NCBI GenBank assembly: GCA_026396275.1
Contig: JAPLXC010000011.1
Span: 1 to 48,296 of the forward strand
Reading direction: 5' to 3'
DNA length: 48,296 bases
Origin: Candidatus Moraniibacteriota bacterium
GTDB lineage: Bacteria > Patescibacteriota > Minisyncoccia > Moranbacterales > JAPLXC01
Shown: positions 5,038-20,375 of the stretch, in pieces
Position numbering within the stretch: the first letter of the stretch is position 1
Layout of the letters: each line of letters begins with the position of its first letter
Notes under the pieces: generated by a model
Database searches by the model: none
Told to the model about the DNA's origin: nothing
Seen by the model: only the letters and a program-made list of their open reading frames with translations
Program-made: the position numbers and the translations under genes

Positions 5038-5266
5038 ATTCCGGATATAACAATGAAAGAAAATTCAATCTAGATTGTAGTACTAAATGTAAAGACCACC
5101 TTTGGGGAGAAAGTAAAAAGTGAAATTTGCGTTTTGTTGGTTGTTCTTCGAAAAGGGGGAGACAATCAGCGGGTGCAGATGGACACTAGAGAGAGTGGAT
5201 ATAAGAGAACATTGATGAGGTGGTCTTTTAAATGGGTTTATGACCGGAGTTCAGCTCCGTTTTTTT
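5038..5266 (+). ncRNA. Candidate structured non-coding RNA (unassigned)
   Basis: 11-bp perfect long-range inverted repeat (5091-5101/5218-5228), internal G-U-rich hairpin, terminal hairpin plus T7; no ORF. Confidence 0.35.
5245..5266 (+). terminator. Intrinsic terminator-like hairpin
   Basis: CGGAG-TTCAG-CTCCG followed by seven T. Confidence 0.6.
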
Positions 5267-19884: not shown

Positions 19885-19955
19885 TTGGGGAGGTAGGATT
19901 CGGACCTACGATCACGGATCCAGAGTCCGTTGCCTTACCGCTTGGCTACTCCCCA
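19885..19955 (-). tRNA. tRNA-Gln(CTG)
   Basis: Cloverleaf TGGGGAG/CTCCCCA, anticodon arm ACGGA-CTCTGGA-TCCGT, T-arm GTAGG-TCCGAAT-CCTAC; CCA not encoded. Confidence 0.93.
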
Positions 19956-20206
19956 ATGTCTAAATTTTTAAAAATATTTTTTAACTCTTTTCTCCCCTTT
20001 CTTGATTTCAAATATTTTTCTCTAATCCTTGCCTCGCGCAAAGTTTTTAATTCCTCCTTATAGATCAATTTTAAGGGTCTTCTATTTTTAGTAGATTTGC
20101 ACTTTCCAAAACTATGATCATTTAATCTTTTTTCTAAATTGTCTGTTGATCCCAGATATGATTTCTTGTCTTTTTGGCTCAGAAGCAAATAAACTGTTGG
20201 ACTCAT
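19946..20206 (-). CDS. Stand-alone GIY-YIG nuclease-family protein
   Basis: VYLL...YLGSTDNLEKRLNDH...T...RP.KLIY.E...AR.RE; stop codon lies inside tRNA-Gln. Confidence 0.88.
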   Translation of the reverse strand: MSPTVYLLLSQKDKKSYLGSTDNLEKRLNDHSFGKCKSTKNRRPLKLIYKEELKTLREARIREKYLKSRKGRKELKNIFKNLDIGE

Positions 20207-20224
20207 AATAAACCTTGTGCCTTA

Positions 20225-20258
20225 TCCGCCTCGGCAAGGACGCCTCGGACGAGACGGG
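20225..20258. mobile_element. 34-bp GC-rich hairpin insertion
   Basis: Absent from the intact tRNA; minus strand folds as CCGTCTCG/CGAGGCGG with an inner stem. Confidence 0.7.
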
Positions 20259-20265
20259 CCGCTTG

Positions 20266-20284
20266 CCTGTCCGCCTTTGACGGA
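20266..20284. mobile_element. 19-bp CCTG-tagged hairpin insertion
   Basis: CCTG-TCCGCCTTTGACGGA; absent from the intact tRNA. Confidence 0.7.
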
Positions 20285-20301
20285 GCTACTCCCCAAAATA
20301 C

Positions 20302-20327
20302 TAAAACAAGCATTGCTGCTTGTTTTA
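20302..20327. terminator. Terminator-like hairpin downstream of ftsX
   Basis: Perfect 11-bp stem TAAAACAAGCA/TGCTTGTTTTA, 4-nt loop. Confidence 0.6.
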
Positions 20328-20375
20328 TCGTATCTCAAAATATGCCAAAAATCAACTTTAAGCTCTAGCTTTACC

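Follow-up and report, generated by a model that had tools for sequence, protein, structure and literature searches.

Organization of the tRNA-Gln locus

The DNA analysed here (the window) is the 48,296-nt contig JAPLXC010000011.1 of Candidatus Moraniibacteriota bacterium (assembly GCA_026396275.1), and this study deals with a 340-bp cassette (20296-19956) in which a small GIY-YIG nuclease gene is nested in a tRNA-Gln gene. All locus coordinates were verified and are read on the minus strand. In this direction, ftsE and ftsX (stop codon 20376) are followed by a terminator-like hairpin, an interrupted copy of the tRNA 5' part (the pseudo-tRNA) with its hairpins, the nuclease open reading frame (ORF), an intact tRNA-Gln(CTG) and a glycosyltransferase gene that begins 18 nt past the tRNA. 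The cassette is composed of a GIY-YIG gene restricted to the catalytic domain, its cognate hairpin(s) and a mimic of the tRNA-Gln 5' end that holds these hairpins. On balance, we favour its interpretation as a selfish unit of the type formed by Ssn nucleases and their hairpins, which would reach tRNA genes through the tRNA sequence that it carries and would nick single-stranded DNA (ssDNA).

The pseudo-tRNA consisted of three blocks separated by two inserts. Block 1, TTGGGGAGTAGC (20296-20285), corresponds to position -1 and tRNA positions 1-11; it is an exact 12-mer repeat of 19956-19945, without any further occurrence in the 48-kb window. It is followed by a 19-nt insert, TCCGTCAAAGGCGGACAGG (20284-20266), forming hairpin h1 (TCCG-TCAAAGG-CGGA, then CAGG) after tRNA position 11. 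Block 2, CAAGCGG (20265-20259), represents tRNA positions 12-18 and precedes hairpin H, a 34-nt insert, CCCGTCTCGTCCGAGGCGTCCTTGCCGAGGCGGA (20258-20225), lodged in the D-loop between G19 and U20, which is the conserved cis element of the cassette. Block 3 (20224-20211) covers tRNA positions 19-32 and is made of TAAGGCA (20224-20218) and CAAGGTT (20217-20211), assigned to a foreign tRNA-Gln allele. The tetranucleotide TATT separates CAAGGTT from the ORF start, and the AAGG of CAAGGTT probably doubles as ribosome-binding site.

Joined through TAAGGCA, the three blocks matched 19956-19931 at 26/26 positions, i.e. the first 25 nt of the tRNA and the preceding base. This agrees with the initial annotation, which had obtained the same match after removal of the two inserts. 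The extent that it gave for the match held through TAAGGCA, but tRNA-derived sequence does not stop there, the next 7 nt (CAAGGTT) being those of another tRNA-Gln allele. A gapped local alignment of the tRNA with the 250 nt upstream of the ORF gave z = 6.4 against shuffled sequences. The tRNA is also met at the other end of the gene: as had likewise been noticed, the last codons and the stop (ATT GGG GAG TAG) run into the tRNA, the final 10 nt of the ORF being the first 10 nt of tRNA-Gln(CTG). The latter (19955-19884) was recognized as intact by ARAGORN and by Rfam (RF00005, 65.3 bits); in the fragment and hairpin region, Rfam recovered tRNA only and no other family.

The nuclease and its relationship with Ssn proteins

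The nuclease gene (20206-19946) codes for an Ssn-like or UPF0213/Slx1-like protein of 86 aa, matching PF01541 over residues 4-72 (54 bits for a cut-off of 22.6, E = 2e-14). It is made of a single catalytic GIY-YIG domain, neither a second domain nor a DNA-binding domain being found by profile or in the AF2 model. This model (pLDDT 92) displayed a GIY-YIG core with secondary-structure order E-E-H-E-H-H, and Foldseek related it to UPF0213 proteins, the Slx1 nuclease domain (TM 0.62-0.66), I-TevI and UvrC. Residues Y6, Y17, R27, H31 and E63 were invariant among 43 homologues; from established knowledge of I-TevI, we take them to be the catalytic positions. The closest homologue (P0002) was 83% identical, and the closest relatives compared at the DNA level (loci L123-L130) were 69-81% identical. 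No relatives of the nuclease were found in viral contigs. Comparison with relatives gave proportions of 0.16-0.23 for nonsynonymous differences (pN) and 0.70-0.85 for synonymous ones (pS, saturated), with dN/dS around 0.1. Such low pN at saturated pS indicates strong purifying selection on the gene.

The Ssn family (cd10448) groups single-domain GIY-YIG proteins of about 94 aa, such as SsnA of Neisseria meningitidis (Chenal 2025, PMC11893778). Each binds its cognate hairpin repeat (NTS/SRM), in most cases found beside the gene, and cleaves ssDNA directly upstream of this hairpin and on a single strand, while being inactive on double-stranded DNA (dsDNA) and RNA (PMC11893778). Protein and hairpin co-vary, SsnA modulates transformation, and the NTS-ssnA-NTS layout was likened to an insertion sequence, its role being left open and its mobility a hypothesis (PMC11893778). 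The window protein shared 57% identity with the protein of L048 (E = 8e-26) and 44% with that of L074 (E = 1e-23); in both loci, a single canonical NTS/SRM-like hairpin adjoins the gene. It is highly probable that the window nuclease and its hairpin form an Ssn-type pair.

Hairpins of the cassette

Hairpin H lies 19 nt upstream of the start codon and folds into a basal stem (CCGTCTCG/CGAGGCGG) and an inner stem (CGAGG/CCTTG). Its folding energy was -18.5 kcal/mol on the sense strand vs -11.3 on the antisense strand, and the sense-strand hairpin was the more stable one in 19 of 23 cases. H differed at only one of its 34 positions from the hairpins of L001, L005, L006, L125 and L129, whose proteins were 64-77% identical to that of the window and whose synonymous sites were saturated (pS about 0.8). 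The corresponding hairpin family (F1) was associated with 20 of the 29 genes of the window clade and with none of the 57 others (p = 5e-13); within this clade it spanned Gln, Leu and Asp tRNAs, and the Cys-associated clades carried another palindrome, CCCGSC...GSCGGGCG. All true F1 matches in 700 kb of loci lay in tRNA fragments beside these nuclease genes, and no second copy of H or h1 was present in the 48-kb window. Hairpin h1 turned out to be a shortened form of a longer hairpin, TCCGT...ACGGACAGG, found at the same position in L011.

Because H remained nearly identical at saturated synonymous sites and F1 tracks the nuclease clade, the hairpins are regarded as integral cognate parts rather than as later colonists. 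As judged from this conservation, H is a sequence-constrained cis element and the putative functional partner specific to this nuclease lineage.

Recurrence of the tRNA-nested layout

A scan of one genome per species recovered 452 relatives, and 80 loci were retained. A same-strand tRNA occurred within 150 bp at 54/80 of these homologous loci. Altogether 57 tRNAs were counted within this distance of the 80 genes, all on the same strand and none on the opposite one, which represents 15 times the density found further out in the same loci. Upstream of the ORF, a significant tRNA 5' copy was observed in 24 of the 29 loci with a downstream tRNA (Gln, Cys, Leu, Pro or Asp), and no hairpin-free fragment was seen at loci with a downstream tRNA. 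In the window clade, the module CCCGYCTCG...CGAGRCGGR was always located in the tRNA 5' copy, exactly between G19 and U20 of the D-loop, for Gln, Leu and Asp tRNAs alike. L093 displayed the same H module additionally in the anticodon loop.

Some loci were more elaborate. L002 (2780-2870 and 3380-3580) carried the H module in tandem arrays of at least three units at the D-loop position of two tRNA-Gln pseudo-copies, both arrays containing stretches of N. Directly downstream of the intact tRNA, L012 (3365-3520) and L019 (3355-3460) displayed full-length tRNA-Gln copies crippled only by D-arm hairpins, in addition to the short 5' fragment that precedes the nuclease gene. A separate nuclease clade (L033, L045, L051, L053, L058 and L064) occurred downstream of tRNAs (Lys, Arg), except for L064, which had no tRNA within 150 bp; its members displayed twin hairpins tipped by GCTNAGC that, in the tRNA-linked loci, begin at the tRNA end. 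Finally, a GC-rich element of about 170-190 nt was found downstream of tRNA-Gln in L104 (2990-3190), L096, L106, L085 and L019 (3480-3620). It is delimited by the T-arm and 3' acceptor end of the tRNA, copied in inverted orientation (GGAAGAGATCGAAC ... GTTCGATTTCCCTTCCTCCCCAGC). No Rfam family was detected in the L104 element, the sole copy scanned, and the window lacks the element.

Empty, occupied and ORF-less alleles

Syntenic loci were gathered via FtsX. In the empty state, encountered in L087, L111, L098, L114, L101, L086, L091 and others, tRNA-Gln(CTG) is located 56-140 nt past ftsX, behind a conserved TTGACC-17-TAGGAT. The occupied state was found in L081, L093-96, L104/L122 and L106. 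L099 retained the fragment and its hairpins and had no ORF, and in L085, L107, L108 and L121 the interval from ftsX to the tRNA was filled by unrelated DNA devoid of a nuclease gene.

Two pairs of close relatives were particularly informative. Flanks of empty L114 and occupied L104 were 93% identical over 759 nt and their tRNAs 100% identical, L104 being longer by 354 bp net. Likewise, empty L091 and occupied L093 displayed 94% identical flanks. In L093, the ORF is followed by an intact tRNA-Gln of a foreign allele, then by the crippled native allele; the latter was identical to L091 at all 66 of its 66 retained positions, its first 7 nt being gone and two hairpin plugs having been added. L093 and L095 were 99.98% identical for 5.2 kb and diverged fully from position 5238, precisely where the intact tRNA-Gln ends on its 3' side. 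Beyond this point, L095 carried other hairpins together with another GIY-YIG gene of distant kinship, and L093 the crippled native tRNA. Several nuclease lineages had reached the ftsX-tRNA-Gln site: the window clade, the L095/L096/L122 clade, L106 and L081, the nuclease of L081 belonging to another clade and being accompanied by a different hairpin family. Comparison of these alleles showed that the cassette behaves as a discrete unit, present or absent at one site, and that it leaves or brings exactly one working tRNA.

The window also displayed a putative tRNA-operon promoter, read from the sequence just past the ftsX stop: TTGATT (20355-20350), a 17-nt spacer and TACGAT (20332-20327). Its position is that of the TTGACC-17-TAGGAT found before tRNA-Gln in empty-site relatives. 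A sigma-70 consensus scan of the locus called no promoter, the candidate matching the consensus at 8 of 12 positions, so that its proposal stems from position and similarity to relatives. The terminator-like hairpin TAAAACAAGCA-GCAA-TGCTTGTTTTA (20327-20302), probably the ftsX terminator, is placed between the putative -10 box and the pseudo-tRNA (20355-20302 for the whole arrangement). Transcripts from this promoter would start within the 5' arm of the hairpin, and one sequence may therefore terminate ftsX and yet let tRNA-operon transcripts pass. An extra gene of about 0.9 kb occurred between ftsX and the tRNA-Gln promoter in L085, L093 and L107 and was missing in other relatives; as it is present in some relatives only, the spacer between ftsX and the tRNA seems generally prone to insertions.

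Origin of the pseudo-tRNA fragment

CAAGGTT (20217-20211) is the anticodon-stem sequence of tRNA-Gln in L001, L005 and L123, whereas the window's own tRNA reads ACGGACT. The closest relatives (L123-L130) all lie in front of tRNA-Gln(TTG), the upstream gene being dnaX according to Pfam for L126 and L128 and to a reading of the upstream ORF for L124. The fragment/ORF junction TTTAYT-ATG (...GTT-TAYT-ATG) was common to the window, L123 and L124, and the 25-nt 5' segment was identical in the window tRNA-Gln(CTG) and in the tRNA-Gln(TTG) of L123 and of L008. Fragments of L124 and L126 differed from the adjacent tRNA at acceptor-stem positions.

A window lineage at CTG, close relatives at TTG and a common junction imply at least one move between tRNA-Gln loci. 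Foreign CAAGGTT and the location of the closest relatives at tRNA-Gln(TTG) indicate that the cassette takes at least part of the fragment with it. We consider that the cassette probably came from another tRNA-Gln gene and brought along the hairpin and part of the pseudo-tRNA.

Nature of the cassette

Since related bacteria have the site empty, the cassette most likely represents a small mobile element that parasitizes tRNA genes; that it is, or was, mobile appears quite likely from these sequence comparisons. Part of this had been anticipated. The initial annotation had described an integrase-free unit tied to tRNA genes, which is what was found (340 bp, one ORF, no integrase), and both the recurrence of the fragment/ORF/tRNA architecture and the empty alleles that it had proposed to look for were observed (24/29 loci and, for instance, the L114/L104 pair described above). 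By contrast, a simple duplication of the local 5' end was not supported, for the fragments of the window, L124 and L126 contain allele-specific bases absent from the adjacent tRNA. Nor was its view of the freed fragment as a collector of hairpins (see below), so that its interpretation as a whole is partly supported.

The following mechanism is proposed. The cassette would be preceded by the native tRNA promoter and followed by the working tRNA-Gln(CTG), leaving an essential tRNA behind it in the same transcription unit; because of this location, the nuclease would be transcribed from the tRNA promoter. Targeting would be provided by the tRNA sequence carried at both ends, the 25-nt 5' segment in front and its recurrence at the ORF end acting as portable homology arms, a role suggested by the identity of this segment in CTG and TTG tRNA-Gln genes. 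By recombination or strand annealing, the cassette would then enter the 5' part of any tRNA-Gln gene, an intact tRNA being regenerated in the process. By analogy with Ssn proteins, the nuclease would bind its own hairpin in ssDNA and nick beside it, at the tRNA/hairpin joint, leaving double-stranded tRNA genes uncut, and this nick would start recombination or copying. As the hairpins interrupt the direct repeat, they may also hinder precise loss of the cassette.

A bolder version, which we find rather doubtful, would make the cassette a minimal autonomous mobile element of about 340 bp and of a new mechanistic type, with the pseudo-tRNA as a DNA guide and scaffold, not a scar. The 86-aa hydrolytic ssDNA nuclease would recognize only its own hairpin, the choice of target being left to nucleic acid. 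For this, the tRNA-derived arms around the hairpin would anneal to the non-template strand exposed during intense transcription of a tRNA gene, or to ssDNA entering by transformation; the enzyme, bound to its hairpin, would nick exactly where the homology ends (D-loop GG|T), and copying of the cassette into the target would follow.

Among the alternatives, a classical free-standing homing endonuclease fares best, although it is unlikely. The protein would cut the double-stranded, cassette-free tRNA-Gln gene, and break repair would copy the cassette from the occupied allele. This would agree with the presence/absence polymorphism at one site, with the heritability of tRNA identity on the nuclease tree (25 changes vs 53 in shuffles) and with the foreign intact tRNA of L093 standing beside a displaced native copy, as in mitochondrial mobile ORFs (PMC3630166); SegB, also of the GIY-YIG type, moreover acts in a cluster of tRNA genes (PMC2330249). 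However, the window protein is limited to a catalytic domain of about 80 aa, devoid of a DNA-binding domain, and its characterized single-domain relatives are inactive on dsDNA (PMC11893778). The occupied allele also keeps a fully intact tRNA gene and would therefore still be cleavable, and an ever-present, constrained and clade-tracking hairpin finds no explanation.

An immobile, domesticated Ssn-like nuclease sharing the tRNA operon is improbable as well. The pseudo-tRNA would then be a by-product of local duplication and recombination provoked by nuclease and hairpin, and the protein would render a host service, e.g. modulating DNA uptake or recombination as proposed for Neisseria. It is difficult to reconcile with empty and occupied alleles among 93-94% identical relatives, with different nuclease lineages bearing different hairpins at the same site, or with the abrupt divergence of L093 and L095 (99.98% identical over 5.2 kb) exactly at the tRNA 3' end. 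The window cassette and its closest relatives are, furthermore, found at different tRNA-Gln genes with one common fragment/ORF junction. Strong purifying selection on the protein and its constant co-orientation with tRNAs speak for such a service nonetheless, and some clades, such as the Ignavibacteria tRNA-Cys group, look stably placed. Modulation of transformation by SsnA (PMC11893778) and the segmental amplification of tRNA loci that SegB is reported to provoke (PMC13096335) point in the same direction.

The possibility that the nuclease gene entered with a 5'-end duplication and that unrelated hairpin mini-elements later gathered in the dead fragment, where insertions are harmless, is even harder to defend. 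Hairpins were indeed seen only in non-functional tRNA copies, and they occurred in both orientations (L009) and in tandem arrays (L002, L008). Against this, H kept 33 of its 34 positions in cassettes whose proteins were 64-81% identical, while neighbouring synonymous sites were saturated, the hairpin family tracked the nuclease clade (20/29 vs 0/57), the ORF-less L099 retains its hairpins, and hairpin-free fragments were not seen at loci with a downstream tRNA. True F1 matches, in 700 kb, were moreover confined to tRNA fragments beside these genes, and the 48-kb window lacked other H or h1 copies.

A chance resemblance or an assembly artefact is practically negligible despite public sequencing runs of only about 3x depth, whose contigs confirmed 19932-20242 exactly and the poorly covered 20243-20339 only weakly, since the 12-mer is unique in the window, the alignment reached z = 6.4 and the same architecture occurred in dozens of independent assemblies. 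These runs displayed no joints, at a depth too low to inform on within-population polymorphism.

Other candidates were dropped. The downstream tRNA is complete by itself, which disposes of a tRNA intron or split tRNA. A transposase target-site duplication does not fit a repeat whose length, depending on the locus, ranges from 25 to about 70 nt, nor a fragment that can differ from the local tRNA. Derivation of the hairpin from the tRNA D-arm was rejected because hairpins set in Gln, Leu and Asp tRNAs have identical ends.

Several observations nevertheless weigh against the favoured Ssn-type, tRNA-targeted cassette. The SRM pattern HGTCWY...RNCYNB had no match in H or h1 on either strand, being found only in L048 and L074; the window hairpin, CCCGTCTCG...CGAGGCGGA, thus falls outside this pattern, and the protein was named Ssn-like for that reason, in spite of its kinship to the L048 and L074 proteins. 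Its hairpins are located within loops of a tRNA pseudo-copy and upstream only, vs both sides in NTS-ssnA-NTS. Among solved structures, the best sequence matches were the UPF0213 proteins BH0048 and EF2693 (1zg2, 1ywl), and the sole match of a plasmid search was B. subtilis yazA (42% identical). The DNA-cutting activity of the 86-aa protein is a prediction. As for the origin of the fragment, its first 18 nt carried local allele variants in most loci (L004, L006, L009, L023), which would also fit local duplication or gene conversion, and the CAAGGTT argument is weakened by the probable use of AAGG as ribosome-binding site. Identities of the 3' 47 nt of the window tRNA to other alleles (40/47 with L007, 39/47 with L081, 37/47 with L001) are too close, and the 72-nt gene too short, to decide which part of the intact tRNA is native. 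The nearest ftsX relative of the window was only 62% identical, so that its genome lacks a near-isogenic empty allele. Finally, contigs of the compared loci come from metagenome bins, and taxon labels may be wrong.

Taken with its relatives, the locus provides comparative evidence that units of a type whose role outside Neisseria was left open by the 2025 paper do move: empty, occupied and ORF-less alleles, one lineage at two tRNA-Gln genes, and native tRNA copies crippled by the enzyme's own hairpin. It also points to a specific niche for them, the 5' part and loops of tRNA genes. If the proposed mechanism is correct, it would explain how an enzyme devoid of a DNA-binding domain is directed to a defined site in the genome, why a nuclease gene so often precedes essential single-copy tRNA genes in ultra-small bacteria, and what gives rise to the tRNA pseudogenes plugged by hairpins that mislead annotation. 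The constrained 34-nt hairpin and the 86-aa enzyme are, in addition, candidates for the ssDNA-cutting tools proposed in the Ssn paper (PMC11893778).

Comparison with known systems

Ssn units are the closest counterparts. Like them, the window cassette codes for a single-domain protein (86 aa vs about 90-100 aa) with no DNA-binding domain, beside which lies a cognate GC-rich hairpin in the 20-50 nt range (34 nt for H) that co-varies with the nuclease lineage. Unlike them, it is nested in a tRNA gene, with empty and occupied alleles. The word tRNA occurs nowhere in the Ssn paper (0 occurrences; PMC11893778), and no description of a tRNA-nested nuclease/hairpin layout was found in the published literature.

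UPF0213/YhbQ-YazA and Slx1 proteins gave the best solved-structure matches, both by sequence and by fold. Slx1 carries a zinc-finger domain and needs Slx4, and we know of no hairpin or tRNA association described for YhbQ/YazA.

Elements of the IS200/IS605 and REP/RAYT (HUH) groups also combine a small gene with cognate ssDNA hairpins, which exist as gene-less copies too. In contrast, the window enzyme is a hydrolytic GIY-YIG nuclease for which no covalent tyrosine intermediate is expected, and hairpins of its type are confined to tRNA fragments.

Integrase-borne islands and prophages share the use of a tRNA gene as landing site, restored by a carried partial copy. These elements usually duplicate tRNA 3' ends, whereas the window repeats the 5' end and has nothing between the tRNA and the next gene. 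Its unit measures 340 bp instead of kilobases, contains a single ORF and no tyrosine or serine integrase, and is bordered by ftsX/ftsE and a glycosyltransferase gene.

SegB is an enzyme of about 220 aa with a DNA-binding part. Its gene in phage T4 (PMC2330249) resembles the window gene in being a GIY-YIG gene among tRNA genes, with inheritance tied to the neighbouring tRNA region. This phage enzyme cuts dsDNA, and it is associated neither with a hairpin module nor with a pseudo-tRNA.

Mobile ORFs of fungal mitochondria (Allomyces atp6; Glomus atp6/atp9/cox2/nad3; PMC3630166) offer a parallel of another kind, in which an endonuclease ORF travels with a copy of a host-gene end. They are free of hairpins, and their large LAGLIDADG or GIY-YIG enzymes cut dsDNA; in the window, the nuclease is reduced to its catalytic domain, the host gene is a tRNA and the 5' end is involved. 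Presence or absence at a fixed site, typical of homing endonucleases, was found for L114 vs L104 and for L091 vs L093. Foreign flanking sequence, as left by co-conversion, was clear in L093, the window displaying only 7 nt (CAAGGTT) that overlap the likely ribosome-binding site. The outcome known from mobile ORFs, one working gene together with a displaced fragment of other origin, was encountered exactly in L093 and partly in the window.

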